Assembly: GCA_026393855.1 (NCBI GenBank)
Contig: JAPKZJ010000061.1
Coordinates: 37,306-101,305, forward strand
Direction of reading: 5' to 3'
DNA: 64,000 nucleotides
Origin: Candidatus Aminicenantes bacterium
GTDB lineage: Bacteria > Acidobacteriota > Aminicenantia > Aminicenantales > UBA4085
Within the stretch, counting starts at the first letter, position 1; each line of letters opens with the position of its first letter. The notes beneath the pieces are model-generated. The model saw only the letters and a program-made list of their open reading frames with translations, searched no databases and had not been told where the DNA came from. Positions 24,037-64,000 of the stretch are shown here, one piece after another. A program made the position numbers and the translations under genes.

Positions 24037-24798
24037 TCAGGCTCCGCATAGGACGCCTCCTCCGTTGACGCTTAGGACGGCTCCGGTGATGTGCCTGGCC
24101 AGGTCCGAAGCCAGAAAGAGGATCGGGCCGGCGATATCCTCCGGGGGGGGAATCCGCTTGAGGGGGATGGACTGCCGGACGCTCTCCCGGTAGGCCGCGT
24201 CGCCGAAGACCCCGGTGCACATGTCCGTATCGACCCAGCCCGGCGCGACGCAGTTGACGTTGATGTTCCAAGGCGCGAATTCCACCGCCCAGGACTTGGT
24301 CAGGGCGTTCATAGCACCCTTGGACGCGGCATAATGGGAGTGGAAGGCCTCCCCGCGGATGCCGGCCGTCGATCCGACGTTGACGATGGCTGACCTCGGC
24401 CTGGCTTTCAACAGCGGGAGAACGGCGTCGACGAGATAGAAGAGTCCGTCCAGGTTGACGGCCATCGTTTCGCGCCAGGCCTCGGCGTCCCCTGCCCCCA
24501 TTTCGAGCGGGGTCCAGATACCGGCGTTATTGACGAGCGCATCAAGGCCGCCCCAACGCTCCGCCAGCGCGGCCGCCAACGATCGGACCTGATCCTCACT
24601 AGATAGCTCGACTTTATAAGTAAAGCAATTGCGGCCTATCTTTTCGACAGCTGATCGAACTTCAAGAGCGGCTTCTTCCCGGCATTGGTAAGTGATGGCG
24701 ACATCGCTGCCCGCTTCGGCGAAAAGCAGGGCGGCCGCACGCCCGATGCCGCGCGACCCGCCGGTTATCAAAGTCCTCCGGCCGGTTAGATTGATCAT
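24037..24798 (-). CDS. SDR family oxidoreductase
   Basis: 253 aa. TGGSRGIG cofactor motif, NNAG and YAASKGA catalytic motif. Confidence 0.85.
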   Translation of the reverse strand: MINLTGRRTLITGGSRGIGRAAALLFAEAGSDVAITYQCREEAALEVRSAVEKIGRNCFTYKVELSSEDQVRSLAAALAERWGGLDALVNNAGIWTPLEMGAGDAEAWRETMAVNLDGLFYLVDAVLPLLKARPRSAIVNVGSTAGIRGEAFHSHYAASKGAMNALTKSWAVEFAPWNINVNCVAPGWVDTDMCTGVFGDAAYRESVRQSIPLKRIPPPEDIAGPILFLASDLARHITGAVLSVNGGGVLCGA

Positions 24799-45639: not shown

Positions 45640-46395
45640 GCCAACTATTCGACTTTTGAAAATTTAGACTCTCCCGTTTTTATACCTTTTGAATCATACC
45701 CGATTGACATAATTTCTTTAGGATTTAAAATTACGTACTCATGAATCCACAAAATAACTTCTGGATTAAAATTGTCAACCACATTTCCCCTAATGGTATT
45801 TTCTGTAATGAACTGACCTATCCATGTAACATACTTACCATTAGGGAAAACTAAAAAACCTTTTATTTTGCCATCTCTATCGTCAAAACCACTAAGCTCC
45901 ATAAAAACTGGAGATTTTTCACCTTTAATTTCATTGGTTACAGTTATTATCACTGCTTTCCCAAATAACTTAGTTTCCAAAATTTGAACAGTGCCTTCGT
46001 CTATAGTGCTCTGCCATGTGCCGAGCAATTGTTTCATTAACTCCATTTGATTGAGTTTTGACTGTATGGTTTGTGCTGGTATTTCATTTGAAAAGAGTAA
46101 AAGGAATACAGCCATCATTGTAGTCGAACAAAATTTATTCATAACCCTCCCTCTTGTTGAAGCTTTGTTGGGCCTGTATAGCCGCATTTATGCACATTCA
46201 AGCGTAGTTTTTGGGAATGGATAGGAATTTGCTTTTTCCAGTACGCACCGAATTCCCGCTCCAGCCGAAGAATCTCCCCTTTTGACCACGCCGAAAATAA
46301 CTGCCGGCCGCGCGGCGATGTCAATGACACCAAAAAAGGAAGCACCCCGAAAAAAATAATTCAACCCAGTTAATCCTTCAATCTCCATTTAACTC
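45640..46395. other. AT-rich islet (putative horizontally acquired insert)
   Basis: Hand counts: lines 45721-45780 and 45901-45960 are 30% and 28% G+C, whereas 45001-45060 is 55% and 46441-46500 is 73%. The transitions are abrupt on both sides. Confidence 0.8.
45645..46142 (-). CDS. Small secreted hypothetical protein (possibly a lipocalin/DUF1579-like beta-barrel), encoded in the AT-rich islet
   Basis: Start ATG 46142 with GGGAGGG upstream. Signal peptide MNKFCSTTMMAVFLLLFSNEIPAQ. The mature N-terminus has an LLGTWQS motif, followed by beta-rich sequence. Codon usage is strongly AT-biased, unlike its neighbours. Confidence 0.65.
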   Translation of the reverse strand: MNKFCSTTMMAVFLLLFSNEIPAQTIQSKLNQMELMKQLLGTWQSTIDEGTVQILETKLFGKAVIITVTNEIKGEKSPVFMELSGFDDRDGKIKGFLVFPNGKYVTWIGQFITENTIRGNVVDNFNPEVILWIHEYVILNPKEIMSIGYDSKGIKTGESKFSKVE

Positions 46396-49044: not shown

Positions 49045-49210
49045 GGCTCCCTCCTGGACGGGATTGGATGAAAGGAACGGAACGATCCACATGAAGCTGG
49101 CGCCAGCATAACAAATCCCCTCGCGCGCTGACAAGCGGGCTTAGATTGAAAAGATCCTCCGAAAGCGATTGAATGTCGCGGCCCGACCCCCTATACTATG
49201 GAGCGATCCC

Positions 49211-50635
49211 ATGCTATCCCCCGCCTTCGATATCCGCCAACGCTTCGGACTGGACGCCGCCGGGCTGCGCTCCGTGCTGGACGCCGCCCTGGCCAGCGGC
49301 GGGGATTTCGCCGAGATCTTCCTCGAATACCGCGAGTATCGCTCCGCCTTCATGGAAGAGGACATCCTCAAGGACACCTCCGAGAGCTTCAGCCTGGGGC
49401 TCGGACTGCGCGTCTGGGCGGGCGAGACGACGGGCTACGGCTACACCAACGACTTATCCATGGACAAGATTCTGCGGACCGCCCGGGCCGCCTCAGCGGT
49501 GGCCTCATCGGGCCGGACGATCCCGGCGCTCGATCTTCGTCTGCAGGAAGGCGGCGCCGATGTCTACCGGGTCATCCGGCCGCCCGATCAGGCTCCTTTC
49601 GAGACTAAAATCGCCCTGGTCCGGGAGGCCTATGAAGCCTGCCGCGAGTTTTCTCCGCTCATCAAAAAGGTCAAAGCCGCCATCCAGGACCAAGTCCAAT
49701 TCATCGCCGTGGCCAACTCCGAGGGGCTTTTGGCGATCGATCGGCGCCCCCTGGTCAAGCTGACCTGCGTCGGAATCGCCGAGAAGGACGGCAAGCGCGA
49801 ATCCGGGTATTCGGGCGGCGGCGGCCGGGTCGGCTGGGAGCATTTCGCCGGCCCGACCTCGCCGGCGGCCATCGGCCGGGAGGCGGCCCGCGAAGCGGTC
49901 GAGCTTCTGGACGCCCGCGACGCCCCGGCCGGCGAGATGCCGGTCGTCTTGGCTCCCGGGCACGCCGGCGTCCTCATCCACGAGGCCGTCGGGCATCTTC
50001 TGGAGGCCGATTTCGTCCGCAAGAAGACGTCAGTCTTCTGGAACAAATCAGGCCGGAAGGTCGGCTCGCCGGCCGTCACCATCTACGACGATCCCACGAT
50101 CCCCGCCTCCCGCGGCTCCTACGCCATCGACGACGAGGGGACGATTCCGCAGAAGACCCTGCTCATCGAAAAAGGCGTCGTCCGCGGCCTGCTGCAGGAC
50201 AAGCTCTGCGCCAAGCTGATGAACCGTTCGCTGACCGGCCACGGCCGGCGCCAGGATTACACGGACTACCCGATCCCGCGCATGGCCAACACGTACATCG
50301 ATCGCGGCGAAGACGATCCGGCCGACATCATCCGCTCCGTTCGCAAAGGGCTTTACGCGGAGCGGTTCACGGGCGGCCAGGTCGAAGACTCCGGCAAGTT
50401 CACCTTCTCCGTCAGCTCGGGATACTTGATCGAGGAAGGGCGGCTGACCGCCCCGGTCAAGCAGGCCACCCTGATCGGCAGCAACGTGGATATTCTCAAG
50501 AAGATCGAAATGGTCGGTTCGGACCTCGCGTTCGGCCTGCCGACCGGGACTTGCAGCAAGGAAGGGCAGGATGTCCCGGTCAATGACGGCTGCCCGACGT
50601 TGAAGATTTCTCTAATGACGGTCGGAGGGAAATGA
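49211..50635 (+). CDS. tldD: TldD family metalloprotease
   Basis: Start ATG 49211. HEAVGHLLE (HExxxH) motif. Family-typical length, and paired with pmbA. Confidence 0.85.
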   Translation: MLSPAFDIRQRFGLDAAGLRSVLDAALASGGDFAEIFLEYREYRSAFMEEDILKDTSESFSLGLGLRVWAGETTGYGYTNDLSMDKILRTARAASAVASSGRTIPALDLRLQEGGADVYRVIRPPDQAPFETKIALVREAYEACREFSPLIKKVKAAIQDQVQFIAVANSEGLLAIDRRPLVKLTCVGIAEKDGKRESGYSGGGGRVGWEHFAGPTSPAAIGREAAREAVELLDARDAPAGEMPVVLAPGHAGVLIHEAVGHLLEADFVRKKTSVFWNKSGRKVGSPAVTIYDDPTIPASRGSYAIDDEGTIPQKTLLIEKGVVRGLLQDKLCAKLMNRSLTGHGRRQDYTDYPIPRMANTYIDRGEDDPADIIRSVRKGLYAERFTGGQVEDSGKFTFSVSSGYLIEEGRLTAPVKQATLIGSNVDILKKIEMVGSDLAFGLPTGTCSKEGQDVPVNDGCPTLKISLMTVGGK

Positions 50636-51981
50636 GGCCCGATCCCTTTGCTCCCGGCGACGACTTGGCCCTGGCCGAGCGGCTGGTGCGGTTCGGCCGC
50701 TCCTGCGGCGCGGACGAGATTGAGGTCGGCATCGGCGAGGGTGAGGAGTTCAGCGTCGATGTCCGCATGGGCCAGATCGAGAACCTGGTCGAAGCCGGCT
50801 CACGCTACGCCGGCATCCGGGTCATCAAGGACAAGCGCACGGCGTTCGCCTCCTCCTCGGACATGTCGGAAGAGGCTCTCGAGCGGTTGATCCGCAACGC
50901 CGTCAAACGGGCCGGGCTGTCCCAGCCCGACCCCTTCGCCGGTTTGGCCGACCTCTCCCCCATCCGCATCGATCCCGACGCCCTCGACATCTTCGATCCC
51001 GAAGTGATCGAGCTCGAGGCCAAGACGAAGATTCGCCTGGCCCTGGAGACCGAGCGGATCGCCTTGGCCGACAAGCGGATTTCGAACTCCCACGGCGCCG
51101 GGTTCAGCAGCCACGCCGCCCGAACCTACCTGGCGGCCTCCAACGGATTCGCCGGCACCTACGCTAAGACCTTTTGCGGGCTGGGCGTCGGCCTCCAAGC
51201 GGGCGAAACGGACGACCTGGTCGAGGACGACTGGCATTCCAGCCGGATCCATTTCCGGGATCTGGAATCGCCCGAGCAGATCGCGCGAACCGCGGTTGAA
51301 CGGACCGTCCGCCAGCTCAACCCCCGCAAGCTCGGAACCCGGCGCGTCCCGGTTATTTTCGAGCCGCAGATGACCGGCAGCCTGCTGGGTTTCCTGTTCG
51401 GCTGCATCTCCGGGACGGCCGTCTACCAGCGCTCGACCTTTCTGGCCGATCGGCTGGGTCAGAAGATCGGCCGCGATGAGCTGACCGTGATCGACGACGG
51501 ACTGATGCCCCGCCGGGTCGGGACCGGGCCGTTCGATTCCGAAGGCATCCCCGCCCAACGTACCGTGGTCGTGGATCACGGCGTTCTGAAAAGATTCCTC
51601 TGCAATACCTATGCCTCGCGCAAGCTGGGGCTTCCGGTGACCGGAAACGCCGACGGAGGCGGAGTCGGGCCGAACAACTTCTTTTTGGAACCCGGGCCGC
51701 ATGACCCCGCGGCCATCATCCGGAGTTGCGATCGGGCGCTCCTGCTCATCCGGACCCTTGGCCACGGCCTCAACGCGGTCACAGGAGACATCTCCCGCGG
51801 CGCCTTCGGCCTTTGGATCGAAAACGGCGAAATCGTTTACCCCGTCTCGGAGATCACCATCGCCGGGAACCTGGGCGATGTTCTCCAGAGCGTCGAGATG
51901 ATCGGCAGCGACCTGGATTTCCGAAGCTCGATCGCCGGCCCCACGATCAAGGTGGCCGAGATGCTCGTGGCCGGCAGCTGA
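50632..51981 (+). CDS. pmbA: PmbA/TldE family protein
   Basis: 449 aa, overlapping the tldD stop by 4 nt. PmbA-like sequence lacking HExxxH. Confidence 0.8.
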   Translation: MRPDPFAPGDDLALAERLVRFGRSCGADEIEVGIGEGEEFSVDVRMGQIENLVEAGSRYAGIRVIKDKRTAFASSSDMSEEALERLIRNAVKRAGLSQPDPFAGLADLSPIRIDPDALDIFDPEVIELEAKTKIRLALETERIALADKRISNSHGAGFSSHAARTYLAASNGFAGTYAKTFCGLGVGLQAGETDDLVEDDWHSSRIHFRDLESPEQIARTAVERTVRQLNPRKLGTRRVPVIFEPQMTGSLLGFLFGCISGTAVYQRSTFLADRLGQKIGRDELTVIDDGLMPRRVGTGPFDSEGIPAQRTVVVDHGVLKRFLCNTYASRKLGLPVTGNADGGGVGPNNFFLEPGPHDPAAIIRSCDRALLLIRTLGHGLNAVTGDISRGAFGLWIENGEIVYPVSEITIAGNLGDVLQSVEMIGSDLDFRSSIAGPTIKVAEMLVAGS

Positions 51982-52236: not shown

Positions 52237-53898
52237 TCACCAAAAGATGACGTTGAGCACGACGAAAACGATTAGGGACAGAACGGCGTAGAAGGCCGGT
52301 CGCTTGAATAAGGGGACCGGCTCCAAGGGGGCTCCCGCCGTCAGGCCTTTGACCAGCCCGACCAGCTCGGCCTCGGGCCGCTTCTTGGTGAACCAGCTGA
52401 CGACGATGGTCACGACGAAGGTGATGAGCCAGGCCCACCAGGCCCGCCAGAAGTTGGCGGCCATGTCGCTGGCCGTTTTGGACATGGTCAGGAAACCGAC
52501 CGAAATCCAGCCGAACTTGACGGCCAGGTACATCGTGAACGACGAGCCCATGCCGGTGATGAGGCCCCAGAAGGCCCCGTTGGGGGTGATCCATTTGACG
52601 AACATCCCTAGGAGCATGGTGGCGAAGAGCGGGGCGTTGACCCAGGAGAAGATGGCCTGCATGTAGTCCATGATCGTGGGCATGCTCTTGGCCCAGTAGG
52701 CGGTGCCGACGCTGACGACGACGGCGAAGATGGTCGCCACCCGGCCCATCCAGAGGAGGTTCTTGGGGGAAGCTTTCTTCCGGATGATCGACTGATAGAT
52801 GTCATAGGTCCAGACGGTGTTGAAGGCGCTGATGTTGCCGGCCTGCCCGGCCATGAACCCGGCCAGGAGGGCGGTGATGCCGAGGCCCACCAGGCCTCGC
52901 GGGAAATAGCGGGCGATGAGCATGGGCAAGGCCGAATCGTAGTTAAGCTTGCCTCCGTCGCTCATCAGCGAGAACCCGCTCTTGGGGTCGTTGGACAGGG
53001 CCAGGGCGGCCAGCCCGGCCACGATGACGATGAACGGCACCGCCATCTTGAAGAACGAGGCGATGATGGGCGTCATCCGGGCCGAGCGCAGGTTCTTGGC
53101 CGAGAAGGCCCGCTGGACGACCAGGAAGTCCGTCGTCCAATAGCCGAAGGAGAGGACGAAGCCAAGCCCCAGGACAATGCCGCCCCACCCCACCAGCATA
53201 CCGTTCGCCGAGGGGTCGCCGGTGTTGCGCCAGAGATGGGAGAAAGCCTCGGGCACCCGCTTCATGATGTCGCCGAAGCTGCCGACCTCAACGATGCCCA
53301 GGATTGAGACCAGGAACAGGCCGAACCAGATCAGGAAGAATTGGATGATCTCGGTGAAGATGGCCGACATGAGCCCGCTCAAGGTGACGTAGCAGGCCAC
53401 GGTGGCCGCCGAGGCCAGCATGCTGACGTCCCAGTTCCAGCCCAGGAACGTGTGCAGGACGAGGGCCATGGCGTAGAGGTTGATGCCGCTGACCAGCAGG
53501 GTCATGATGGCGAAGGAGAAGCCGTTGAGGACGCGGGTCTTCTCGTCGAAGCGCAGCTTGAGATAGCCCGGCACGGATTTGATCCGGGCACTGTAGTAGA
53601 AGGGCATCATGAAGATGCCCAGGAAGAGCATGGCCGGGATGGCCCCGATCCAGTAGAAATGGGCCACCGACATGCCGTACTTGTAGGTGTTGCCGGTCAT
53701 GCCCAGAAGCTCCAGAGCCCCCAGGTTGGCCGAGAGGAAGGCCAGCCCGGCGACCCAGGACGAGTTCCGGCGGCCGGCCAGGAAGAAGTCCTCTTCGCTC
53801 TTGGTGTAGCGCTTGAGATAGAAGCCCAGGCCGATGATGAAGACAAAATAGAACAGGATGATGAACCAGTCGACGAAGTGAAGTCCGATCGCTTGCAT
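52237..53898 (-). CDS. Sodium:solute symporter family transporter (SGLT-like)
   Basis: 553 aa, ~13-14 TM. The N-terminus ...EDFFLAGRRNSSWVAGLAFLSANLGALELLGMTG is typical of the SSS family. Confidence 0.85.
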   Translation of the reverse strand: MQAIGLHFVDWFIILFYFVFIIGLGFYLKRYTKSEEDFFLAGRRNSSWVAGLAFLSANLGALELLGMTGNTYKYGMSVAHFYWIGAIPAMLFLGIFMMPFYYSARIKSVPGYLKLRFDEKTRVLNGFSFAIMTLLVSGINLYAMALVLHTFLGWNWDVSMLASAATVACYVTLSGLMSAIFTEIIQFFLIWFGLFLVSILGIVEVGSFGDIMKRVPEAFSHLWRNTGDPSANGMLVGWGGIVLGLGFVLSFGYWTTDFLVVQRAFSAKNLRSARMTPIIASFFKMAVPFIVIVAGLAALALSNDPKSGFSLMSDGGKLNYDSALPMLIARYFPRGLVGLGITALLAGFMAGQAGNISAFNTVWTYDIYQSIIRKKASPKNLLWMGRVATIFAVVVSVGTAYWAKSMPTIMDYMQAIFSWVNAPLFATMLLGMFVKWITPNGAFWGLITGMGSSFTMYLAVKFGWISVGFLTMSKTASDMAANFWRAWWAWLITFVVTIVVSWFTKKRPEAELVGLVKGLTAGAPLEPVPLFKRPAFYAVLSLIVFVVLNVIFW

Positions 53899-53998: not shown

Positions 53999-54574
53999 CT
54001 AGAACGCGTTGAAGTGGCAGACGTCCCGGAGCTTGCGCTTGGGGACATGGAACGAGCCGTCGGGATTCTTCCAATAACGCGGCGAGTCCGCATAGTCTTC
54101 CACGGTGGAAGTCTCGGCCGGATACCCCAGGGCCAGAACGGAATCAACCCGATAGGGCTCGGGGATCCCCAGGGTTTCCTGGATCCTGGCCCGGTCGATT
54201 GAGATCAGCCAGCAGCTTCCGATCCCCTCGGACCAAGCCGAGACGGCCATGGCTTCGACGGCCGCGCCGACATCGTATTCGTACATCTTCTCCCGCACCT
54301 TGGTATTGACCAGGACGAAGATGTAAGCCTGCGGCTCCTGCCCCGGCTTGGGGTCGCCGTGGGGATGGATGTAGGCAGCCCACTTGAGGGCCGGAAAGAC
54401 CCGCGCGCAGACCTCGGGTTCGTCGACGACGATGAACTCGAGAGGCTGCAGGTTGGCGGCCGAAGGGGCCAGGCGGCCGGCATCGACCAGTCTCTCCAAC
54501 GCTTCGCGGACGACGGGGCGAGGTTGATACTGACGGATCGTCCGGCGGGTCATGACGGCTTCATGGACGTTCAT
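53999..54574 (-). CDS. Nitroreductase family protein
   Basis: 191 aa. RRTIRQY and ...APSAANLQP... motifs of the FMN nitroreductase fold. Confidence 0.8.
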   Translation of the reverse strand: MNVHEAVMTRRTIRQYQPRPVVREALERLVDAGRLAPSAANLQPLEFIVVDEPEVCARVFPALKWAAYIHPHGDPKPGQEPQAYIFVLVNTKVREKMYEYDVGAAVEAMAVSAWSEGIGSCWLISIDRARIQETLGIPEPYRVDSVLALGYPAETSTVEDYADSPRYWKNPDGSFHVPKRKLRDVCHFNAF

Positions 54575-54643: not shown

Positions 54644-55840
54644 TCATCCGGCCCGGCGGACTTTCGGCGCCTTGAGCCCGAAGACCGCCGTGGAAAGGAG
54701 GAGCAGGATGCCGGCCACGATATACATCCCGCGGTATCCGGCCCGGTCCGAGACCCAGCCGAAGAAAGGCGAGCCCAACCCCATGCCGACATCGAAGAGG
54801 GCCAGGTAAAGACTTAAGCCGAAACCCTTGTGGGCCAGCCCGACGATGTCGATGATGTAGGTGCTGAGCGCGGGGAAGATCAGGCCCTGCCCGAACCCGG
54901 CCAGGAAGGCGTTGACGAGGAACATCGAGCTCGACCGGACCTGGGAGATCCAGAACAGATTGAGGCCGATGATGGCCGCGGCCGGCAGGATGACCGCCTT
55001 GCGACCGTAGCGGTCGGAAACGTCCCCGGCCACTATCCGGGTCAGGATGGCTGACGCCGAGAAAACGGCGAAGAAGGGGCCGACCCGGCCGAGCCCGGCG
55101 GAGCGTGCGAATAGGGCGGCGAAATTGACGATCGAGCCGCGGATGGCGCCGTGGAAAACGGGCATGGCCGCGGCCACCGCAAGGGTGGCCAGGGCGTAGC
55201 CGCGCAGCGGCGCCGCGGTCATCTTCTCCGGATCGCGAAGCGCCGGCTCGATAGTCCGGGTCAGAAGGAGGCAGGCCAGCGCGGCGGCCAGGAAGGCCAG
55301 GCTGGCGTTGTAGAGGCCCCCGTACCCGAATCGGCGGACGATCTCCTCCGCCAAGGCCGGCCCGGCCGCACTGGCCACGATGCCGGCGACGCCGATGACG
55401 CCGATCGAACGGGCCAGCCGCTCGACCGGGGCGAGGTCGGAGCAGACCGCCATGCTGGCGGTCATCGAGACCCCCCAAGCGATCCCGCTCAAAGCCCGCA
55501 ATAGGAGCGGCAGCCAACCGGCGTCATGCACAAGATGGAAGAACGGGATCACGGCCATGAAGAAAAGGAGCCCATAAATCGAGATGGCCCGGCCGCCCTT
55601 GCGGTCGATCAACCGGCCGAAGAACGGACGCACCCCGATGGCCAGGATGCTGTGGATGCCCATGATCAGGCCGACTTTGGCTTTGGCCGCGCCGAATGAT
55701 TCGAGCCGGAGGGGAAAGATATAGAACAGGGCGACGCTCAAGAAAAGAAAGAAATATCCGACTAGAGCCAGCAGGAAATCGCGCCTCCAGAATCCTCCCG
55801 GCGGCGGCAGCGGGCACGAGTCTTTCGTCGGCGTCGTCAT
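54644..55840 (-). CDS. MFS transporter
   Basis: Start tentatively ATG 55840 (GAGGA upstream); ATG 55927 is the alternative. 12 TM with the MFS loop motif GRLIDRKGGR. Confidence 0.75.
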   Translation of the reverse strand: MTTPTKDSCPLPPPGGFWRRDFLLALVGYFFLFLSVALFYIFPLRLESFGAAKAKVGLIMGIHSILAIGVRPFFGRLIDRKGGRAISIYGLLFFMAVIPFFHLVHDAGWLPLLLRALSGIAWGVSMTASMAVCSDLAPVERLARSIGVIGVAGIVASAAGPALAEEIVRRFGYGGLYNASLAFLAAALACLLLTRTIEPALRDPEKMTAAPLRGYALATLAVAAAMPVFHGAIRGSIVNFAALFARSAGLGRVGPFFAVFSASAILTRIVAGDVSDRYGRKAVILPAAAIIGLNLFWISQVRSSSMFLVNAFLAGFGQGLIFPALSTYIIDIVGLAHKGFGLSLYLALFDVGMGLGSPFFGWVSDRAGYRGMYIVAGILLLLSTAVFGLKAPKVRRAG

Positions 55841-56054
55841 CCTGTCCTCGGGGCCGGAGATCGTCGGCCGCCTCCCCCGCCCCTGGGGGAGGAAGGGCTG
55901 GCTGTTTTCGGGGTTTGGGGAAATCAAGCCGAAGGGGGATTATGAAAAAGGTCGCAGCTTCACACAGCCAGCGAAGCAAAGCTAATTGGGCGCTATTCTA
56001 ACCGAATCCGGTTCCGGAAGCAACGCCCCAACCGATCTTCCCGTTGTGCCGAAA

Positions 56055-56702
56055 TCAGCGGAGCGAAGCGACGAGCGCAGCCGCCCGGGCCGTCAGATCG
56101 TCCCAGCGCCCCTCGGCGATCAGGGCCTTGTCCAGGAGCGCCGTACCGAGCCCGACGCAGCAGGCGCCGGCGTCGATAAAGGCCCGGGCGTTGCCCGGCG
56201 TCACCCCGCCCGTCGGCATCAGGCGGATGCCCGGGAACGGCCCTTTGAGGTCCTTGAAATACGCCGGCCCGAGCGAGGTGGCCGGGAAAACCTTGACGAT
56301 GTCGGCGCCCTCGCTCCAGGCCCGCCAGATCTCAGCCGGCGTGAAAGCCCCCGGCGCGACCAAAACGCCGCAGCGGCGGCACTCCCGGATCATCCCGGCG
56401 TCCGCGACCGGAGAGACGACGAAATCGGCTCCGGCCTCGATCACGGCGACCGCCGTCTCGGCGTCCATGACCGTTCCCGCGCCCAGCCGGATGCCGGGCA
56501 GCCCACGGTCGGCCAGGCCGCGGATGATGTCCACGGCCCCGGGCACGGTCATGGTGATCTCGACGGCCCGCACGCCGCCCCTTTCAATGGCTTCGACAAC
56601 CCGCAAGAGCTTTTCGGGATCGGTCATCCGGACGACCGCCACCACTTTGTGCTCGAGCAGGAAGGCCAGGGTTTCATCGCGGTGCATGGTGCCCTCCCTC
56701 AT
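56055..56702 (-). CDS. eda: 2-dehydro-3-deoxyphosphogluconate (KDPG) / 4-hydroxy-2-oxoglutarate aldolase
   Basis: 215 aa. ...VVAVVRM..., VEITMTVPGA, GAGTV and VKVFPA (Schiff-base Lys region), typical of Eda. Confidence 0.85.
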   Translation of the reverse strand: MREGTMHRDETLAFLLEHKVVAVVRMTDPEKLLRVVEAIERGGVRAVEITMTVPGAVDIIRGLADRGLPGIRLGAGTVMDAETAVAVIEAGADFVVSPVADAGMIRECRRCGVLVAPGAFTPAEIWRAWSEGADIVKVFPATSLGPAYFKDLKGPFPGIRLMPTGGVTPGNARAFIDAGACCVGLGTALLDKALIAEGRWDDLTARAAALVASLR

Positions 56703-57727
56703 CTCCGGATCCGCCCAGACGCGTCGCCCGCAACGAGATCGAGGACCTCCCGCTCCGAAACCAGGTTGAAATCGCCCGCCACCGTGTGCTTGAGGCAGGA
56801 CGCGGCAACGGCGAAGGTCAGGGCCCGGGCGTCGTCCTCGAAGGCCAGGAGTCCGTGGATGAGACCGGCGGCAAAGGCATCTCCGGCGCCGACCCGATCC
56901 ACGATATTCTCGATCTCGTGGGACGGGCCGGCCAGGAATCCGGCGCGGCTTCGCAGGACCGCGGACCAGCCGTTGCGATCGGCGCTGCGGCTCGTCCGCA
57001 GCGTCACCGCCGCCCGGGCCAGGTTCGGGTAGGCCGCCAGGACGTCCGCCGTCAGCTTTTCATAGGCCTTGAGGTCGAACGCCCCGTCACCGCCGGGCGA
57101 GCACTTCAGGCCCAGCGCCTTCTGGCAATCCTCCTCGTTCGCCAGGAGAAGATCCGCCCGAGCCGCGAGCGTCGGCATGACCTCCGCAGCCGGAACCCCG
57201 TAGCGCCACAGCTTGGCCCGGTAGTTCAAGTCGAGCGAGACCGTGAGCCCCGCCGCCTTGGCCGCGATCATCCCCTCCTGGGTCAGGTCGGCGGCGCTTC
57301 GGCTGAGGGCGGGCGTGATCCCGGTGACATGGAACCAGGATGCGCCCGCGAAGGCCCTAGCCCAATCGATGTCCCCCGGCCCGGCTTCGGATATGGCCGA
57401 GCCGTCGCGATCGTAGAGAACGGTCGACGGCCGCGGCCCGGACCCCGTTTCCGCAAAATAGATTCCCATCCGCCGACCGCGCCGGATGATGCCGCCCGTA
57501 TCGATGCCATGCCGACGGAGCTCCGCAATCCCGGCCTCGGCGACGGGGTTGTCCGGCAGGACGGTGAGGAAGCTCGTTTCCCGGCCGAAGCGGGCCAGGG
57601 AGACGGCCACGTTGGCCTCCCCGCCCCCGAACCGCGCCTGCAATCGGTCGGATTGGAAAAACCGCTCCCGCCCGGGCGGCGACAGCCGGAGCAGGAGCTC
57701 GCCGAAAGTGACGATGCGATGGGCCAT
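56699..57727 (-). CDS. kdgK: 2-dehydro-3-deoxygluconokinase (PfkB family)
   Basis: Start ATG 57727 with GGAG upstream. MAHRIVTFGELLLRLSPPG...FGGGEANVAVSLARFG and C-terminal VDRVGAGDAF. Overlaps the eda start by 4 nt. Confidence 0.85.
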   Translation of the reverse strand: MAHRIVTFGELLLRLSPPGRERFFQSDRLQARFGGGEANVAVSLARFGRETSFLTVLPDNPVAEAGIAELRRHGIDTGGIIRRGRRMGIYFAETGSGPRPSTVLYDRDGSAISEAGPGDIDWARAFAGASWFHVTGITPALSRSAADLTQEGMIAAKAAGLTVSLDLNYRAKLWRYGVPAAEVMPTLAARADLLLANEEDCQKALGLKCSPGGDGAFDLKAYEKLTADVLAAYPNLARAAVTLRTSRSADRNGWSAVLRSRAGFLAGPSHEIENIVDRVGAGDAFAAGLIHGLLAFEDDARALTFAVAASCLKHTVAGDFNLVSEREVLDLVAGDASGRIRR

Positions 57728-57738
57728 GGGTGACTCCG

Positions 57739-59520
57739 TTATTCGCCGATCATCTTCCAGCCGCGCCGGCGCAAGTCGAAGTAGATGACCGCCCCGAAGA
57801 GAGCGCCGGAGGCAAGGAAGACGAGGCCGATCGGCCAGGCGCCGAAGAGGATCTTGCCCGTGCCGAAGAGGAAGGCATAGATCATCGCGACGCCGCTCAG
57901 CCAATCCTTAAGGTTGAAGATTCCGTCCCGGCTCGGCGGGACATCGACAGCTTCCCGAGCCACGGGTCCCCAGAGCGCCGCGCTGGGCCGGACGCGCCTA
58001 TAGAAAGCCAGTAGGACCTCGCGCGGTTCGGGTCCCGTCAGCAGGGTTACGGTCAACCAGACGACCGTCGTAACCGCCACGGTGATCAGGACGATCCAGG
58101 CAAACTGGAGCGGGTCGCTCTCCTTCCAGCCGAACCCGAGCCGGAGAGTGACCGAAGTGACCAAGGCGGCCAGCATGGCCGAAATTTCGCTCCAGGCATT
58201 GATCCGCCACCAGAACCAGCGCAGCAGGTAAACGAGTCCCGTTCCCGCCCCAATGGCGATCATGAACTTCCAGGCGTCCGCGATCGAATCCATGAAGAAG
58301 GTCACCATGGCCGAGAGAACCATCAAGAGCATGGTTACCGCCTGCGAGGCCCGGACATAATGCTTCTCGCCGCGGCCGCGGGCCATAAACCGCCGGTAGA
58401 GGTCGTTGATAAGGTAGCTGGCACCCCAGTTGAGCTCGGTTCCGATGGTCGACATATACGCGGCGGCGAAGGCGGCCAGCATCAGCCCCCGCAGGGAGGC
58501 CGGAAGGTCGGCCATCAGGATCCGGATATAGCCGGATTCGGGGTCCGCGGCGAACGCGGGGTCGCCGCTGAAGCGGACGACCGCGGCCAGAGCCACGATG
58601 ATCCAAGGCCAGGGCCGGAGGGCATAATGGGCCAGGTTGAACCAAAGAGTCGCCAGCAGGCCGTTCTTCTCGTCCTTGGCGCAGAGGATGCGCTGGGCGA
58701 TGAATCCCCCGCCGCCCGGCTCGGCTCCCGGGTACCAGGAGGCCCACCAATTGACGGCCACATAGACGAAGAAGGTCAAAAACGGCATCCAGGCCGAGTT
58801 CAGGTCCGGGACGAACGAGAGCAGCGATCCGTGCCCGGCCCGGGTCGCGTCGATGGCTTTGATTCCCGCCACCAGCCCGGACATGCCGCCCAGCGATTTG
58901 ACGGCGAAGATCGCCAAAAGGATGACCATGCCCATCTTGAGGACGAACTGGAAAAGATCGGTGACCAGCACACCCCACAACCCGGACAGGGTCGAGATCG
59001 AGGCGGTCAGGACCATGATCGCCACGGCGATCAGCAGGGCCTGGACCTTGGTGACACCTAGGACGAGCATCAGGATCTTGACCATGGCCAAGTTGACCCA
59101 GCCCATGATGATCAGGTTGATCGGCAGTCCAAGGTAGAAGGCCCGGAAGCCGCGCAGGAAGCGGGCCGGCCCGCCGCTGTAGCGGATCTCGGCGAACTCG
59201 ACGTCGGTCAGGACTCCGGCCCGCCGCCAAAGGCGGGCATAGAAGAAGACCGTCAGCATGCCGCTCGCGGCCATGCTCCACCAAATCCAGTTGCCGGCGA
59301 TGCCGTTGCGGGCGACCAATCCCGTCACGGCCAGGGGGGTGTCGGCGGCGAAGGTGGTGGCCACCATCGACGTCCCGGCCAGCCACCAGGACACGTTTCG
59401 GCCGGAGATGAAAAAGTCGTTGACGCTGCGAGTGGCCCGCTTGCGATAATAAAGGCCGACCGCCAGGTTGAAGGCGAAATACGCGGCGATGACCGCGATG
59501 TCGATGGTTGTCAGGCGCAT
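57739..59520 (-). CDS. Sodium:solute symporter family transporter
   Basis: 593 aa polytopic protein. The N-terminus ...NDFFISGRNVSWWLAGTSMVATTFAADTPL is typical of SSS. It is the first gene of the SSS-kdgK-eda operon. Confidence 0.85.
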   Translation of the reverse strand: MRLTTIDIAVIAAYFAFNLAVGLYYRKRATRSVNDFFISGRNVSWWLAGTSMVATTFAADTPLAVTGLVARNGIAGNWIWWSMAASGMLTVFFYARLWRRAGVLTDVEFAEIRYSGGPARFLRGFRAFYLGLPINLIIMGWVNLAMVKILMLVLGVTKVQALLIAVAIMVLTASISTLSGLWGVLVTDLFQFVLKMGMVILLAIFAVKSLGGMSGLVAGIKAIDATRAGHGSLLSFVPDLNSAWMPFLTFFVYVAVNWWASWYPGAEPGGGGFIAQRILCAKDEKNGLLATLWFNLAHYALRPWPWIIVALAAVVRFSGDPAFAADPESGYIRILMADLPASLRGLMLAAFAAAYMSTIGTELNWGASYLINDLYRRFMARGRGEKHYVRASQAVTMLLMVLSAMVTFFMDSIADAWKFMIAIGAGTGLVYLLRWFWWRINAWSEISAMLAALVTSVTLRLGFGWKESDPLQFAWIVLITVAVTTVVWLTVTLLTGPEPREVLLAFYRRVRPSAALWGPVAREAVDVPPSRDGIFNLKDWLSGVAMIYAFLFGTGKILFGAWPIGLVFLASGALFGAVIYFDLRRRGWKMIGE

Positions 59521-59537
59521 CGGACCCGTTCCTCGCC

Positions 59538-59566
59538 TTGCTTTTTACTACACATTGTCATAAATA
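59538..59566 (+). promoter_or_regulatory. Putative sigma70-type promoter for the secreted-protein/M24-like operon
   Basis: TTGCTT, 17 nt, TAAATA, about 35 nt upstream of ATG 59601. It has the same -35 hexamer as the putative mdh promoter. Confidence 0.35.
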
Positions 59567-59600
59567 TGAAGCGATTTCGTCCCGCTCCCTAGGAGGGTCC

Positions 59601-61340
59601 ATGCGCAAGCTTTTCCCCGCGATCGCTTTGTTCGCCCTGATCGCCGGCTTGGCCTCGGCGGCCGATTTCGGCTACCCGACGGCCGGCGAACCCTGGTACT
59701 CGATCAAGCTCGGCTTCCAAGCCGCTCCCGCCGCCCTCGGCGCGGGAAACTGGACGCTCATCCGGATCACCGTCAACGGCCAAAGGGCGCGCAACTTCGC
59801 CCTCCTGCAGGGCGGCCGGGAGACGACCGCACCCGAAATCGACGCCGCCAAGCCGTTCGAGCTGAAGGTGCGCTGGAGCTGGGAGGCGCGGCAAGCCTAC
59901 GAGATCAAGGCCGATTTCGAGGGCGGCGCCGGCAAGACCGTGAAAACCCTGACGGCCAAAGAAAAGGCGCCCTCCGGCAAAGGATACTGGAACTCGGCTT
60001 GGAAGAACTACCTTTCGCTTCTCGTCTCGGAGGACGACGGCTTGGAGCGGACCCGGATGCCGGTCCATGCCACCTTCGGGGTCCTGTCGTCCTATCTCAA
60101 GTCGGCCGACGAGATCCGTGTCGTCCGGGCCGAGCGCAAGGGCGACGACGTCGTCTACGAGGAAGTCCCCTTCCAGGTCTACGACGTCCGAACCTGGAAC
60201 GATCCCAAGATCACAGCCCAGGTCGACAAGGACGAGAAAACCGGGAAGACGACCGTCCGCTATCACCCCACGACGTCCTTCAGCCTGGCCTTCCTGACCG
60301 ACCTCAAGCCGCGCCAGAAAGCCACTTATCTAGTGTTCTACAACAACCCCGGCGCCCGGCGCCCAGCGTTCAAATCCGACTTGAAAGTGTCCGGCCAAGG
60401 CCTGGGCAAGACGATCGAGAACGCCTTCTACAAGGTCGTCCTGCACCCCAAGAGCGGGACGATCTACGAGGTCGTCGAGAAGTCCTCGGCCGTCAAGCTC
60501 GAACACAAGCTCGAGACCAACGGATCGGTGCACTGGAACCCTGACGTGTACGCGCCGCCGCACGCCTGGTACCACGTCTCGGATTGGGACAAACCGGCCT
60601 ACAGCGAGGACTCCGGGCCGGTTTTCTACTCGCTCCGGCGCGAGGCGCCCCTGCCCATGCCCAAGGGCATCAAGGTGGCCGTCACCTACTACTTCTACGC
60701 CGGCGCGCCCTTCATCCTGGCCGAGTCGGCCATGACCATCGAGAACGACATCTTCGTCGAATCCCTGCGCAACGCCGAGATCGTCTTCAACAAGGCGGTC
60801 TTCAACAAGGCCGCCTGGCGGGGAGTCGACGGCAAGCTCACAACCCTGGACTTCGCCTCCTCCCGCATGCATCCCAAACACGCCGCCCGCATCCGGACCG
60901 ATGTGCCCTGGATCGCCTTCTACAGCGACTCCCGAGGCCTCGGCTTTGCCAGCCTGTTCCTCGACCAGGCCTTGCCCAACCTGCACGGCGGCTCGGCTTC
61001 CCAGGAGCAACCGCACATTTACATCGAGCACGGGCCGTGGTACTACATGTCGCGCGGAATCGTCGACTCCTTCGGCTCCAACAATCAAACTCGGCTGCTC
61101 GCGGTCAAGGCCGGGAGCCTCTACTATGAACGCAACGCCTGGCTGCCCTTCGCTTTCGCCAAGGAGCAGGGCTTCGCCGGCCGGCTGGATGCTCTCTACG
61201 GCATGCTCAAGCATCCCGTCGGTCTGGCCGAGGACATCGAGACCTATCTCGAGAGCCCCGAGGGCTGGATCGTCCCCATCCTGACCGAGCCGTTCGAGGA
61301 AGGCGTCAAGGGCGCGATCGGGGCGCCAAAAAAGAAATGA
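59601..61340 (+). CDS. Secreted protein of unknown function (paralog A of 62919..>64000)
   Basis: Start ATG 59601 with AGGAGG upstream. Signal peptide MRKLFPAIALFALIAGLASAA. 579 aa. Shares colinear blocks with the gene at 62919, for example GLGKT..., HWNPDVYAPPHAWYHVSDWDKP and AGAPFILAE. Confidence 0.75.
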   Translation: MRKLFPAIALFALIAGLASAADFGYPTAGEPWYSIKLGFQAAPAALGAGNWTLIRITVNGQRARNFALLQGGRETTAPEIDAAKPFELKVRWSWEARQAYEIKADFEGGAGKTVKTLTAKEKAPSGKGYWNSAWKNYLSLLVSEDDGLERTRMPVHATFGVLSSYLKSADEIRVVRAERKGDDVVYEEVPFQVYDVRTWNDPKITAQVDKDEKTGKTTVRYHPTTSFSLAFLTDLKPRQKATYLVFYNNPGARRPAFKSDLKVSGQGLGKTIENAFYKVVLHPKSGTIYEVVEKSSAVKLEHKLETNGSVHWNPDVYAPPHAWYHVSDWDKPAYSEDSGPVFYSLRREAPLPMPKGIKVAVTYYFYAGAPFILAESAMTIENDIFVESLRNAEIVFNKAVFNKAAWRGVDGKLTTLDFASSRMHPKHAARIRTDVPWIAFYSDSRGLGFASLFLDQALPNLHGGSASQEQPHIYIEHGPWYYMSRGIVDSFGSNNQTRLLAVKAGSLYYERNAWLPFAFAKEQGFAGRLDALYGMLKHPVGLAEDIETYLESPEGWIVPILTEPFEEGVKGAIGAPKKK

Positions 61341-62728
61341 ACGCCCTCCTCGCCGATGCCATCGTCGAGCGGCAGGCGCCGCTTGTGGACCGCGGCAAGT
61401 CCGTCACGGCGGCCGAATACCGCCGCCGCTGGGCCGCCGTCCGCAAGGCCATGGCGGATCGCGGGTACGACCTGCTCTACGTTTGCGGGTCCGAGCTCGA
61501 CCGCTCGGACGCGGCTTGGCTGGCCGGCATCAACGACCCGATCATCGAACGGTACGGAGTGATCGTACCGCGGACGGGTCCACCGGTAGCCTTGGCCGGC
61601 TCCGAGGGCGGCCATGTCATCGAGGACTGCACCCGGGCTTCTGGCGTTCGGGTGGCTTTGCTCCGCGAATTCCAGATCTCGGACGAGGACTATCGCTTCG
61701 CCCGCTTCGGGACGATCGAGGACCTCGTCGCGTCTCTCGTCCCGGCCAAGCCCGGCCGGCCGATCCGCTTGGCCGTCGCCTCGAGCGGGCAGTTCGTCCC
61801 GCACGACCATATCCTGATGCTCCAGGGCCGTTTCGGCTCGGACAACGTGATCTTCGATACCGACCTGCTGCGGCGGATCAAATACGAGAAATCGCCGCTC
61901 GAGCTGACTTTGATCGGCACCGCCGCCTCAATCGCCGACGCCGCTTTTCTGGGCATGTTGGCGGCGATCCGCCCGGGAATCGCCGAGCTCGATGTGGCCG
62001 CCGTCGGCGATTACATCATGAAACGGCTGGGCGCGGGGCGGACGGGCTTCCCGACCATCGTCTCTTCCGGCCCGCGCGGCCGGAGCGTCATCGGGCCGGC
62101 CACAAATCGGACGATCCGCGACGGCGAATTCGTCTCGCTCGGCCTCAGCCCGACCTTCCAGGGCTACCATGGCGTCATGCGCCGGACGGTCAAGGCCGGC
62201 GGCGAACGGACCTTCGCCGAGGATCAGTTTCTGGCCGCCCTGCGCGGCCTCTATCACGCCGTGATGAAGGCCACCATCCAGGCAGCCTGGAAGGGCCTTC
62301 CCTCCCGCTCCATCGACGCCGCCGGCAAGGCTTATCTGGAGAATACCCGGCTCAAGGACGTTCGGGGGCGATTCCGGACGCCCCGCGAACCTTACACCTT
62401 CATTCACAACACCGGCTGTTCGGAATGCCAGGAGGGCTTCGGGGCCGTGACCCCTTATACCCGGGAGCCTTTGGGGGACGCGGTCGCCCTGATGATCGAC
62501 GTCGCCTTCATGGGCTTCGACGAAAAGAAACGGCTCGTTTTCCCGATCGAGTACGCAGTCATCGAGGACGGGTTCTGGAGGGCGGGCCGCGAGGTCGGCG
62601 TCTACAACAGGATGCCTCTTGACGTGCAATCTCTTGTCGGCGGGGACGCCGTTGAGATCCCGGCCGCGGCCGTCAATCCCTATCACCGGCCTTGGGCGCG
62701 ATCAGAAGGATGCCCTATCCGAAGCTAA
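61337..62728 (+). CDS. M24 (pita-bread fold) aminopeptidase/creatinase-like protein with non-canonical active-site residues
   Basis: 463 aa, overlapping the upstream stop by 4 nt. Creatinase/prolidase-like N-domain, and a C-domain alignable by eye to M24B (…GEFVSLGLSPTFQGYHGVMRRT…FIHNTGCSECQEG…MIDVAF…IEDG). Confidence 0.7.
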   Translation: MNALLADAIVERQAPLVDRGKSVTAAEYRRRWAAVRKAMADRGYDLLYVCGSELDRSDAAWLAGINDPIIERYGVIVPRTGPPVALAGSEGGHVIEDCTRASGVRVALLREFQISDEDYRFARFGTIEDLVASLVPAKPGRPIRLAVASSGQFVPHDHILMLQGRFGSDNVIFDTDLLRRIKYEKSPLELTLIGTAASIADAAFLGMLAAIRPGIAELDVAAVGDYIMKRLGAGRTGFPTIVSSGPRGRSVIGPATNRTIRDGEFVSLGLSPTFQGYHGVMRRTVKAGGERTFAEDQFLAALRGLYHAVMKATIQAAWKGLPSRSIDAAGKAYLENTRLKDVRGRFRTPREPYTFIHNTGCSECQEGFGAVTPYTREPLGDAVALMIDVAFMGFDEKKRLVFPIEYAVIEDGFWRAGREVGVYNRMPLDVQSLVGGDAVEIPAAAVNPYHRPWARSEGCPIRS

Positions 62729-62918
62729 CGCTGAACCGATGAAAGCGAATATGAATTGTCGTCCCGAGCACCGCCAAAGGCGGTGCGTGGGGACCTCGAT
62801 GGAGTTATTTTTTGAGGAAGGAAAATGATAAAAGGTTGCCACGCTTCGCTCGCAACGACAAAAAACCAAGTTATTCCCAATGATTCGGCCAATGAATTCG
62901 TTGCTAAGAGCAACTGAT

Positions 62919-64000
62919 ATGAAGAATCGATTGACTAACCTGATCGTGCTGTTCTTTATAGGATTGGCCGCGGCGCGTCCGTGTTCGGCCGCCGTCCTCA
63001 AGCTCGAATTCCAGGCCCCGACAGTCGCGGGGCCCATCTACCTGATCAAAGCGGGATTCGAGGTGAAGGGTAAGATTTTTCGTTTCATCGACGTCGATCT
63101 GCCGTATGGCCGACCCTGGCCGGACGTTCAAATATTAAAGAACGGACGGCCCGTCGATACCACCAAGAATCTCGAGCCGGGCCTCTATGAAGCCCGTCTT
63201 CGCTACGCCTGGCAGCCCAACACATCCTATAAAGCCTTCCTCCACTGCATCGAGGACGAGACCGAAGGCCCGAAGGTTTTGGAAATGGCCGGCATTTCCC
63301 CCGCGGCCGGCGGCGTTCCGGCTACGGCGCAAGAGGGATTCTCCCAATCTTTTTTGATCGAGGAGACGGCCGGGATCGTCCGCCGCGGCGAGATCGTCTA
63401 TTTGACGGTCACAGCACCCAAGGCCAGCCTCGAAGGGGCGGGGCTCGCCGTCTATGACGGCGAGCGGCTCCTCCCCTGCCAGATCATCGAGAGCAAGGAT
63501 TCCATCCCTCCCGAATCCCAGGCCAAGACCCATCCCCTGACCCGGACCGTCAAGATCGCGGTCGCGATCGACGCCTCCGCTCGCGGAACGAAACTTCTCC
63601 GTGTCTTCTTGTCCGATCCCCCCCCCGCTTACCCGCCGGCTTTCGCGCTGACGGGCGAGGGACTCGGCAAGACCGCGCGCGGCGAAAGGCTGATTCTGGC
63701 GTTCAGCCCCCAGAGCGGACAGATCCTGACTATCGAAGACCCGATGGCAGGCGTCAAGCTCTATAACAAGGCCGGCGTCATCCACTGGAACCCCGATGTC
63801 TTCACCCCGGGGATCGCCTGGGATCATTCCTTCGACTGGAACCCGCCCCAATCCTTCGCCGAAAAGAACGGCCCCCTGGTCTACCTCAACGCCCGCAAGG
63901 GACCCATGCCGCATATCAAAGACGTCTTCCTCGAGGTCAAGTACACCCTGGCCCAGGGCGCGCCCTACTTCATCGCCGAAACCCGGACCCGGGTCGACAA
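62919..64000 (+). CDS. Secreted protein of unknown function (paralog B of 59601..61340), 3'-truncated by the window end
   Basis: This ORF is not in the supplied track because it has no stop in the window; I translated it by hand from ATG 62919. MKNRLTNLIVLFFIGLAAARPCSAA signal peptide; ...GLGKTARGERLILAFSPQSGQILTIE...VIHWNPDVFTPGIAWDHSFDWNPP...QGAPYFIAETRTRVD is colinear with paralog A. Confidence 0.7.
   Translation, partial: MKNRLTNLIVLFFIGLAAARPCSAAVLKLEFQAPTVAGPIYLIKAGFEVKGKIFRFIDVDLPYGRPWPDVQILKNGRPVDTTKNLEPGLYEARLRYAWQPNTSYKAFLHCIEDETEGPKVLEMAGISPAAGGVPATAQEGFSQSFLIEETAGIVRRGEIVYLTVTAPKASLEGAGLAVYDGERLLPCQIIESKDSIPPESQAKTHPLTRTVKIAVAIDASARGTKLLRVFLSDPPPAYPPAFALTGEGLGKTARGERLILAFSPQSGQILTIEDPMAGVKLYNKAGVIHWNPDVFTPGIAWDHSFDWNPPQSFAEKNGPLVYLNARKGPMPHIKDVFLEVKYTLAQGAPYFIAETRTRVD

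Follow-up and report, generated by a model that had tools for sequence, protein, structure and literature searches.

A divergent gene locus at the end of a 64,000-nucleotide stretch of DNA from a Candidatus Aminicenantes bacterium (contig JAPKZJ010000061.1; the whole stretch is called the window) encodes two exported proteins, A and B. According to structure prediction they represent an unannotated family with a carbohydrate-type fold, which is at best remotely akin to the non-catalytic half of glycoside hydrolase (GH) family 38. The genes of A and B flank the gene of an aberrant M24-like protein, and the opposite operon encodes a sodium:solute symporter (SSS), a KdgK-type sugar kinase and the aldolase Eda. 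We consider it moderately probable that this locus catabolises a carbohydrate, or oligosaccharides derived from it, bearing an acidic sugar and an N-acetylated amino sugar. Gene identities, predicted folds, export signals, the loss of metal ligands in the M24-like protein and conserved gene linkage are directly supported.

The locus had been described before in a sequence-only reading of this DNA. The open reading frame (ORF) listing, combined with Pfam and NCBIfam scans, bore out the tight SSS-kdgK-eda operon on the minus strand with its 4-nt overlap and its 11-nt gap, and every gene of the divergent plus-strand operon (A, M24-like, B) was found in its place 80 bp away. Eda passed the cutoff of TIGR01182 (183.4 bits vs 156.05). 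The kdgK product reached 447 bits (1e-133) with the kinase half of the aldolase/kinase fusion model NF041633, as well as 220 and 99 bits with the models for kinases of 2-keto-3-deoxygluconate (KDG) and 2-keto-3-deoxygalactonate, below their equivalog cutoffs of 440 and 400. It was tentatively assigned as KdgK on the basis of the match to the NF041633 kinase half and the overlap of its gene with eda. The best sequence relatives of the SSS in the PDB were vSGLT (2xq2, 8.5e-22), SGLT1/2 and the sialic-acid symporter SiaT (5nv9); by sequence it is placed in the sugar (SGLT) branch of the sodium:solute symporters.

The plus-strand operon was found to run on past position 64000, where the earlier reading had suggested looking for the rest of it. 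Its continuation was read from an identical Logan contig (L001), on which B is followed by genes for a PIG-L family N-deacetylase and for an FGGY kinase of the xylulokinase type (XylB). The full plus-strand unit hence comprises A, M24-like, B, PIG-L and XylB, and after XylB convergent housekeeping genes for PRPP synthetase, URO-D and GlnA were located. The kinase passed the XylB equivalog cutoff of TIGR01312 with 502.2 bits vs 380.25. PF02585 (PIG-L/LmbE, family CE14) was detected in the PIG-L gene of loci L001-L005 and L086-L087, and the motifs PHDDD and HREHADH were read in its sequence; the protein had no match in NCBIfam or among PDB sequences.

Both A and B begin with N-termini resembling Sec-type signal peptides, predicting their export, and BLASTP aligned B with A at 26% identity over ~370 residues (E 1e-27). 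They had been called secreted paralogs, and this description holds. A hypothetical protein from a metagenome-assembled genome (MAG) of Candidatus Aminicenantes has exactly the sequence of protein A. Neither A nor B matched a model in Pfam or NCBIfam, and A found nothing among PDB sequences, be it as a single protein or with family profiles; these Pfam, NCBIfam and PDB searches returned no GH, polysaccharide lyase (PL) or carbohydrate-binding module (CBM) family for A and B. A more diverse profile of the A family gave one marginal PDB match, residues 554-626 of Drosophila mannosidase II (E 0.076). This alignment fell on exactly the sequence block, a beta-sandwich motif, that had been quoted earlier as loosely recalling DUF4861 (PF16153, NF058564). 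The resemblance to DUF4861 was not sustained by Pfam, NCBIfam, hhalign or BLASTP, and A and B were excluded from this family: 0 of 54 members matched PF16153 at E ≤ 5, and comparison of the family profile A2 with the DUF4861 protein of sister locus L090 (2813-4012) yielded an hhalign probability of 0.3% (E 0.21); with BLASTP the E was 1.5. A genuine DUF4861 gene does exist in sister loci as a separate neighbour.

An AlphaFold model of A, built with 65 A- and B-family sequences, reached a pLDDT of 88.7 and a pTM of 0.87. It is all-beta from residue 22 onwards, with two sandwich (Ig-like) domains followed by a large supersandwich. Foldseek aligned this model with the C-terminal part of bacterial GH38 mannosidases in the PDB (E 3e-11, query TM-score (TMq) 0.44) and, at E ~1e-5, with galactose mutarotases (TMq 0.27-0.29) and LacZ domain 5. 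A relaxed Pfam scan of 54 diverse family members detected Glyco_hydro_38C (PF07748) in 3 (best E 0.0048) and Laman-like_dom in 2; the GH38 catalytic domain PF01074 was matched neither by A nor by the family members. Likewise, the aldose 1-epimerase model of Pfam gave no match for the A family, and the likeness to this group is one of fold only. Structure prediction, which had been suggested as a check, thus revealed a carbohydrate-type fold, and no characterised family outside carbohydrate metabolism was matched.

Foldseek also aligned A with the PL26 exo-rhamnogalacturonan lyase 5xq3 over ~540 columns (E 2e-9). On this basis A and B may be regarded as distant PL26-like lyases cutting beside uronic acid, with the unsaturated uronates passing via KDG to KdgK and Eda, a view close to the sequence-only reading. 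Such lyases would fit the linkage of kdgK and eda to the A family and the presence of a GH78 rhamnosidase gene 10 kb upstream; furthermore, three invariant Arg residues together with Tyr and His of A presumably recall the carboxylate-neutralising and base residues of metal-independent lyases. However, the TM-score of the match was only 0.35-0.40 at an rmsd of ~10 Å, the profiles A1 and A2 retrieved no PL26 chain from the PDB at E ≤ 10, though 5xq3 was among the sequences searched, and the locus is devoid of GH88/GH105 and of KduI/KduD-type enzymes. We consider PL26-like lyases quite improbable.

The A family is large, with 325 clusters at 50% identity reaching E ≤ 1e-3, and extends over Aminicenantes, Bacteroidota, Latescibacterota, Gemmatimonadota and Anaerolineae. 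At a mean identity of ~25%, 51 or more of 54 sequences retain W94, E144, R150, Q192, W323, W329, Y363, R390, W437, Y482 and R485; the seven polar residues among them are kept in at least 52, and the whole polar and aromatic set (E, Q, three Arg, two Tyr, four Trp) is retained down to ~22% identity. This constellation suggests a specific sugar-binding site in the A family, which may be catalytic. Some distant members (among P0254, P0364, P0367 and P0242-P0247) carry additional domains, namely one weak N-terminal GFO_IDH_MocA and two C-terminal FeS_assembly_P, and several have N-terminal extensions of 150-240 aa without a Pfam match. The contigs of the distant metagenomic homologs P0249 and P0242 were too short for gene context.

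In Bacteroidota, homologs of A (~30% identity) are encoded in SusC/SusD loci. Among 110 proteins encoded next to them, the families DUF4838 (12), CBM9 (6), SGSH-type sulfatases (5), SBP_bac_5 (4) and Peptidase_M1 (4) were enriched. GH163 and GH185, two families of beta-GlcNAc-type glycosidases including a 6-sulfo-GlcNAcase, have DUF4838 as their catalytic domain (PMC10570127). Immediately upstream of the A homolog, a lipoprotein of ~890 aa is always encoded (L070, 7226-9907; L059, 7142-9895; L079, 7309-9978; ~20 further loci), which shows 49% identity between Chitinophaga and Proteiniphilum. It had no match in Pfam or the PDB, and homology to A was ruled out (hhalign probability 0.3%). By sequence and gene order this lipoprotein represents another family without annotation that invariably accompanies the A family in Bacteroidota.

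This partner could be the real enzyme, and A and B may then be non-catalytic, exported carbohydrate-binding proteins, which capture the substrate or serve as accessories, comparable to the surface glycan-binding proteins of polysaccharide utilisation loci (PULs), and pass the substrate to the SSS or to enzymes encoded elsewhere. The top structural matches of A, the C-terminal beta-domains of GH38 and LacZ domain 5, are indeed non-catalytic, and sequence searches assigned no catalytic family. We nevertheless regard a mere binding function as unlikely: seven polar residues kept in nearly all sequences at ~25% mean identity resemble an active site more than the surface of a lectin, A is large with 579 aa and three domains, no further candidate for a glycosidase or lyase is encoded in the Aminicenantes loci, and the galactose-mutarotase-like fold is catalytic in aldose epimerases.

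The M24-like protein matched PF00557 with 75.3 bits (gathering cutoff 23), covering only profile positions 3-147 of 208. Its AlphaFold model (pLDDT 86.1) shows the full two-domain creatinase/prolidase architecture, and Foldseek identified creatinase 7yto (TMq 0.68), the ectoine hydrolase EutD (6twk, TMq 0.65) and prolidases (E ~1e-19, target TM-score 0.75-0.82). HMMER alignments to the prolidases 1pv9, 1wy2 and 3q6d and to YpdF, and also to 5cnx, revealed that both Asp metal-ligand positions are occupied by glycine (Gly269 and Gly279), and these glycines are invariant in 33 orthologs. With both Asp ligands replaced, the protein cannot have the canonical dinuclear metal site; judged by its sequence, it cannot be a normal metallopeptidase, and the earlier description as an atypical pita-bread enzyme is confirmed. 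The other three ligand positions would be H357, D388 and E410, as deduced from motif position alone. Non-peptidase members of the pita-bread fold catalyse C-N bond hydrolysis in small molecules. A function as ectoine hydrolase was ruled out, as the respective NCBIfam models scored 29-42 bits at cutoffs of 575-613.

The motif HNTGCSECQEG is invariant in the orthologs of the M24-like protein. At residues 353-373, the invariant segment REPYTFIHNTGCSECQEGFGAVTP with a CxxC pair replaces the usual His-containing metal-ligand region, and a metal or redox site of a new type may be formed here. The 120 homologs listed share 65-86% identity and are all labelled only as M24 peptidase or Xaa-Pro aminopeptidase.

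Conservation of the gene neighbourhood was analyzed by scanning one genome per species. This yielded 79 loci, and their six-frame ORFs were searched with the proteins of the window and of a sister locus. Two main architectures were found in Aminicenantes, for which 48 genome loci were evaluated. Architecture I, present in the window, consists of [eda-kdgK-]SSS divergent from A-M24-B-PIG-L-XylB and has the reduced forms A-B-XylB and A-XylB. In architecture II, eda-kdgK is divergent from genes for YitT, DUF4861, an unknown protein of 466 aa, a second PIG-L, NagB, Usp, a 55-aa membrane protein, SSS and an A-family protein (A'); it is complete in at least 14 genome loci and was observed in L090 (1-11797), L028-L033, L036, L039-L041, L049, L051-L053 and L091. 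Its NagB passed the NCBIfam cutoffs, and from its gene content it looks like a combined hexosamine and KDG catabolic island. Hybrid architectures occur in L005/L021 and L006/L026/L038. The 466-aa protein had no match in Pfam, NCBIfam or the PDB; its reading as a ROK-type sugar kinase came from motifs only and was not confirmed (BLASTP E 0.058 against an approximate sequence of E. coli NagK).

Where the upstream flank was long enough to judge (39 loci), the A-family gene has an SSS gene as its neighbour in 27 cases, and the two frequently overlap by 4 bp. Both kdgK and eda are located at most 10 kb from an A-family gene in 23 of the 48 Aminicenantes loci (12 of 25 with full flank), and this is the case in both architectures. 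XylB follows downstream of the A-family gene in 18 of 38 loci; furthermore, the M24 and PIG-L genes co-occur in the module. The association with kdgK and eda that had been proposed for the window hence recurs in other genomes, and its presence in two distinct gene orders speaks for a functional connection.

The intergenic region between the SSS gene and the gene of A (59521-59600) contains a block of ~40 bp, CGCCTTGCTTTTTACTACACATTGTCATAAATATGAAGCG, which is nearly invariant in five related genomes, namely the window and L008-L011, while its flanks diverge. Such a block between diverged flanks makes a regulatory element plausible. It holds the AT-rich imperfect inverted repeat TTTTTA-N13-TAAA(T/A)A and is, as the sequence comparison suggests, probably a shared control region (promoter or operator) of both divergent operons. 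The promoter TTGCTT-17-TAAATA postulated earlier is present as a string and lies within this block, but each of its hexamers agrees with the sigma-70 consensus at 3 of 6 positions only, and a sigma-70 promoter scan of the intergenic region made no call. A second non-coding stretch, the 190-nt spacer between the M24-like gene and that of B, folds at -62.9 kcal/mol (z = -4.15 against shuffled sequences) and has a hairpin of 8 perfectly paired bp at 62768-62786. A conserved RNA element was ruled out here, as L008-L011 show no conservation of the spacer and B follows closely in these loci; a search of positions 55500-64000 for Rfam families gave no match.

PIG-L, NagB, DUF4838, sulfatases, DUF4861, KdgK and Eda are the recurrent partners of the A family and thus indicate glycans containing N-acetyl-hexosamine and an acidic sugar. 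Judged by these gene associations, glycosaminoglycan-like or oxidised amino-sugar substrates would fit better than pectate, alginate or ulvan. The earlier proposal of a polysaccharide or uronate module therefore stands in its outline and in the kdgK/eda linkage; the recurrent partners speak against pectate, alginate and ulvan as its substrates.

For a carbohydrate of this kind, we infer the substrate, the order of the steps and the catalysis by A and B as follows. The exported A and B would bind and probably cleave the glycan in the periplasm or at the cell surface, and the small sugar released would be taken up together with sodium by the SGLT-like SSS, as expected from its family. In the cytoplasm, PIG-L would strip the N-acetyl group, and the M24-like protein without a dinuclear metal site may, speculatively, carry out C-N bond hydrolysis or deamination. 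The xylulokinase-type FGGY kinase would phosphorylate a ketose-like product, whereas KdgK and Eda, assigned at the family level, would convert KDG into pyruvate and glyceraldehyde-3-phosphate. A more specific version is put forward only tentatively: A and B may constitute a new carbohydrate-active enzyme family with a stand-alone GH38-C/mutarotase-like scaffold for periplasmic cleavage of acidic, possibly sulfated, N-acetyl-hexosamine glycans; the M24-like protein with its CSEC motif may act alongside PIG-L as a C-N hydrolase or deaminase of a new kind for amino sugars; and the locus may encode a pathway, not described so far, that leads from an amino-sugar glycan to KDG and to a pentulose phosphate.

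Several observations weigh against the proposed catabolic route. The closest structural matches of both proteins, as modelled, are non-catalytic GH38 domains with TM-scores of only 0.35-0.44, and a xylulokinase has no obvious role in an amino-sugar or uronate route. The linkage counts cover related genomes sharing ancestry and for this reason do not represent independent events. The complete five-gene module occurs without kdgK and eda in L005, L012, L020, L086 and L087, so the link to these two genes is not obligatory. In L086 and L087 the SSS ortholog lies beside an ornithine-cyclodeaminase-like gene, accompanied in L086 by a cyclase-family gene; such neighbours hint at amino-acid-like substrates. 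Additionally, no KduI, UxaABC or polysaccharide-lyase family was found among the 26 window proteins scanned, 20 of them outside the locus. The absence of the usual uronate enzymes noted earlier is thereby supported for these families, but one short-chain dehydrogenase/reductase (SDR) is encoded in the window, and KduD belongs to the SDR family.

These modules without kdgK and eda may also mean that the divergent operons are independent, the plus-strand one serving a xyloside or pentose (XylB) or a glycosylated or acetylated amino-acid or peptide derivative (M24-like, PIG-L), with kdgK and eda nearby as inherited synteny. Of all partners of A, XylB is retained most persistently (A-XylB, A-B-XylB), and the neighbours in L086/L087 and L004 include OCD/mu-crystallin, cyclase, M20 deacylase, aminotransferase and S9 peptidases. 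Independence nevertheless appears improbable to us, as kdgK and eda are tied to A-family genes in two unrelated arrangements, the divergent pair shares the conserved 40-bp element and the SSS belongs with the sugar transporters (SGLT type).

Downstream of the module, on the opposite strand, L004, L005, L086 and L087 encode in fixed order URO-D-like, GlnA, NamZ (exo-N-acetylmuramidase family) and HGSNAT/DUF5009; in the lineage of the window, PRPP synthetase is inserted in this order. NamZ and HGSNAT/DUF5009, and the fact that PIG-L enzymes serve biosynthesis too, would suit a non-catabolic module which remodels or recycles the cell's own envelope glycans, e.g. in peptidoglycan or capsule turnover. 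We judge this very improbable: both genes lie on the other strand past GlnA and URO-D, the module holds an importer, catabolic kinases and an aldolase, and the Bacteroidota homologs belong to SusC/D loci for nutrient acquisition.

In the complete-chromosome MAG represented by L004 (448-9922), genes for an M20 ArgE/DapE-type deacylase, a Zn-dependent dehydrogenase, a GFO/IDH/MocA oxidoreductase and a D-2-hydroxyacid dehydrogenase precede the module, and the other strand carries kdgK, eda, a class III aminotransferase and another SSS. Sugar-oxidation and amine-handling enzymes are mixed in this extended island.

Table 1. Genes and other features of the divergent locus and its surroundings. Positions refer to the window unless contig L001 is named.
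Feature	Position	Strand	Length	Remarks
Exported protein A	59601..61340	+	579 aa	signal-peptide-like N-terminus MRKLFPAIALFALIAGLASA/AD; predicted two beta-sandwich domains and galactose-mutarotase-like supersandwich
M24-like, creatinase/prolidase-fold protein	61337..62728	+	463 aa	PF00557 7e-21; 4-nt overlap with A
Exported protein B, paralog of A	62919..64000	+		cut at window end; full length on identical contig L001
Protein B on L001	L001 9200-10777	same as A	525 aa	
PIG-L family N-deacetylase	L001 10777-11607	same as B	276 aa	PF02585; just past window
FGGY kinase, xylulokinase-type (XylB)	L001 11617-13125	same as B	502 aa	TIGR01312; past window
SSS, SGLT-like	57739..59520	-	593 aa	PF00474 1e-24, 87 bits; 11 nt upstream of kdgK
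kdgK-type PfkB sugar kinase	56699..57727	-	342 aa	PF00294 1e-29; 4-nt overlap with eda
eda, aldolase for 2-keto-3-deoxy-6-phosphogluconate/4-hydroxy-2-ketoglutarate (KDPG/KHG)	56055..56702	-	215 aa	PF01081 1.3e-43; TIGR01182
Conserved intergenic block	59534..59573	.	~40 bp	near-invariant across five genomes
Spacer, M24-like gene to B	62729..62918	+	190 nt	lineage-specific; no Rfam match
GH78 alpha-L-rhamnosidase	46378-49134	-		
TldD/PmbA metallopeptidase pair	49169-51981	+		
Second SSS	52237-53898	-		unrelated SSS
Nitroreductase	53999-54574	-		
Major facilitator superfamily (MFS) transporter	54644-55927	-		
SDR	24037-24798	-		family to which KduD belongs

Outside the locus, the window contains mostly housekeeping genes (EF-G, IleRS, aconitase B, succinyl-CoA ligase, MreC, RmlD). 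The GH78 alpha-L-rhamnosidase carries all five Pfam domains and deserves attention beside the PL26 (rhamnogalacturonan lyase) fold match of A. Between its gene and eda lie the TldD/PmbA pair, the second SSS, the nitroreductase and the MFS transporter; this second SSS is 24% identical to the SSS of sister locus L090.

Aminicenantes are abundant uncultured bacteria of sediment, peat and digesters, the carbon sources of which are mostly inferred. Dozens of their genomes share this conserved locus, which includes, besides the aberrant M24 protein, at least two functionally unannotated families, A/B and the 466-aa protein of sister loci. As a system it is of an ordinary type, a sugar-utilisation locus; it provides a lead to a new carbohydrate-active family and does not constitute a categorically new system. 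If A and B are enzymes, they would define a new CAZy family and point to a glycan substrate missed by current annotation; if they are binding proteins, they would represent a new accessory class for SSS-type sugar uptake. Since the A family also occurs in PULs of the cultured Bacteroidota Chitinophaga alhagiae and Agriterribacter humi, it is experimentally tractable.

Among known proteins, the C-terminal beta-domains of GH38 enzymes gave the best structural matches to the model of A (3lvt, 5kbp and 2wyi at E 3e-11 to 1e-7 in Foldseek), together with the PL26 lyase 5xq3. In contrast to these enzymes, A has neither the catalytic N-terminal domain nor the helical linker, shows no significant sequence similarity and is a stand-alone exported protein. 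The M24-like protein shares the two-domain creatinase/prolidase fold with creatinase and EutD/DoeA, and creatinase has lost the canonical Asp ligands, too. In work of Mais and colleagues from 2020, the ectoine hydrolase EutD reportedly acts together with the deacetylase EutE. The M24-like gene is likewise always co-encoded with a deacetylase gene, which resembles this hydrolase-deacetylase pairing; however, the protein has an invariant motif of its own, and its partner is PIG-L instead of an EutE-type enzyme.

The ong pathway for oxidised chitin in Pseudoalteromonas offers the closest parallel in logic. There, a periplasmic hydrolase frees the oxidised N-acetylglucosamine GlcNAc1A, which is imported by the SSS of the ongIT-kdgK-ongA operon; a deacetylase and a deaminase then produce KDG, and KdgK forms KDG-6-phosphate for the aldolase (PMC9537276). 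The locus of the window would follow the same logic and partly has the same gene order, with an SSS beside kdgK, a deacetylase, a candidate enzyme for the C-N step and KdgK. The enzymes themselves are not homologous: PIG-L stands for the D-aminoacylase OngB, the M24-like protein for the pyridoxal-phosphate-dependent deaminase OngC, and A/B for the GH20 enzyme OngA. Furthermore, the window adds a xylulokinase and contains neither TonB receptors nor a lytic polysaccharide monooxygenase. Because these variable enzymes are unrelated to their ong counterparts and the xylulokinase lies outside the scheme, the general model is held at moderate confidence.

A link to glycosaminoglycans is provided by Bacteroides thetaiotaomicron, in which BT3233 (DUF4861) is needed for growth on chondroitin sulfate, hyaluronan and heparin (PMC8121099). 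Architecture II shares a genuine DUF4861 protein with this system and pairs it with KdgK, Eda, NagB and an A-family protein. In InterPro, DUF4861 is a member of the galactose-mutarotase-like superfamily, and this is the fold class predicted for A. The window differs from the B. thetaiotaomicron system, as A and B are not DUF4861 proteins and its locus is devoid of DUF4861, NagB, GH88 and PL8/12/13. The Bacteroidota PULs, finally, encode their A homologs together with DUF4838 (GH163/GH185-type) proteins, SGSH-type sulfatases, CBM9 and F5/8-type C domains, in line with the carbohydrate context of the Aminicenantes locus; unlike these PULs, the Aminicenantes locus dispenses with SusC/D and the 890-aa partner and uses an SSS importer and cytoplasmic enzymes instead.

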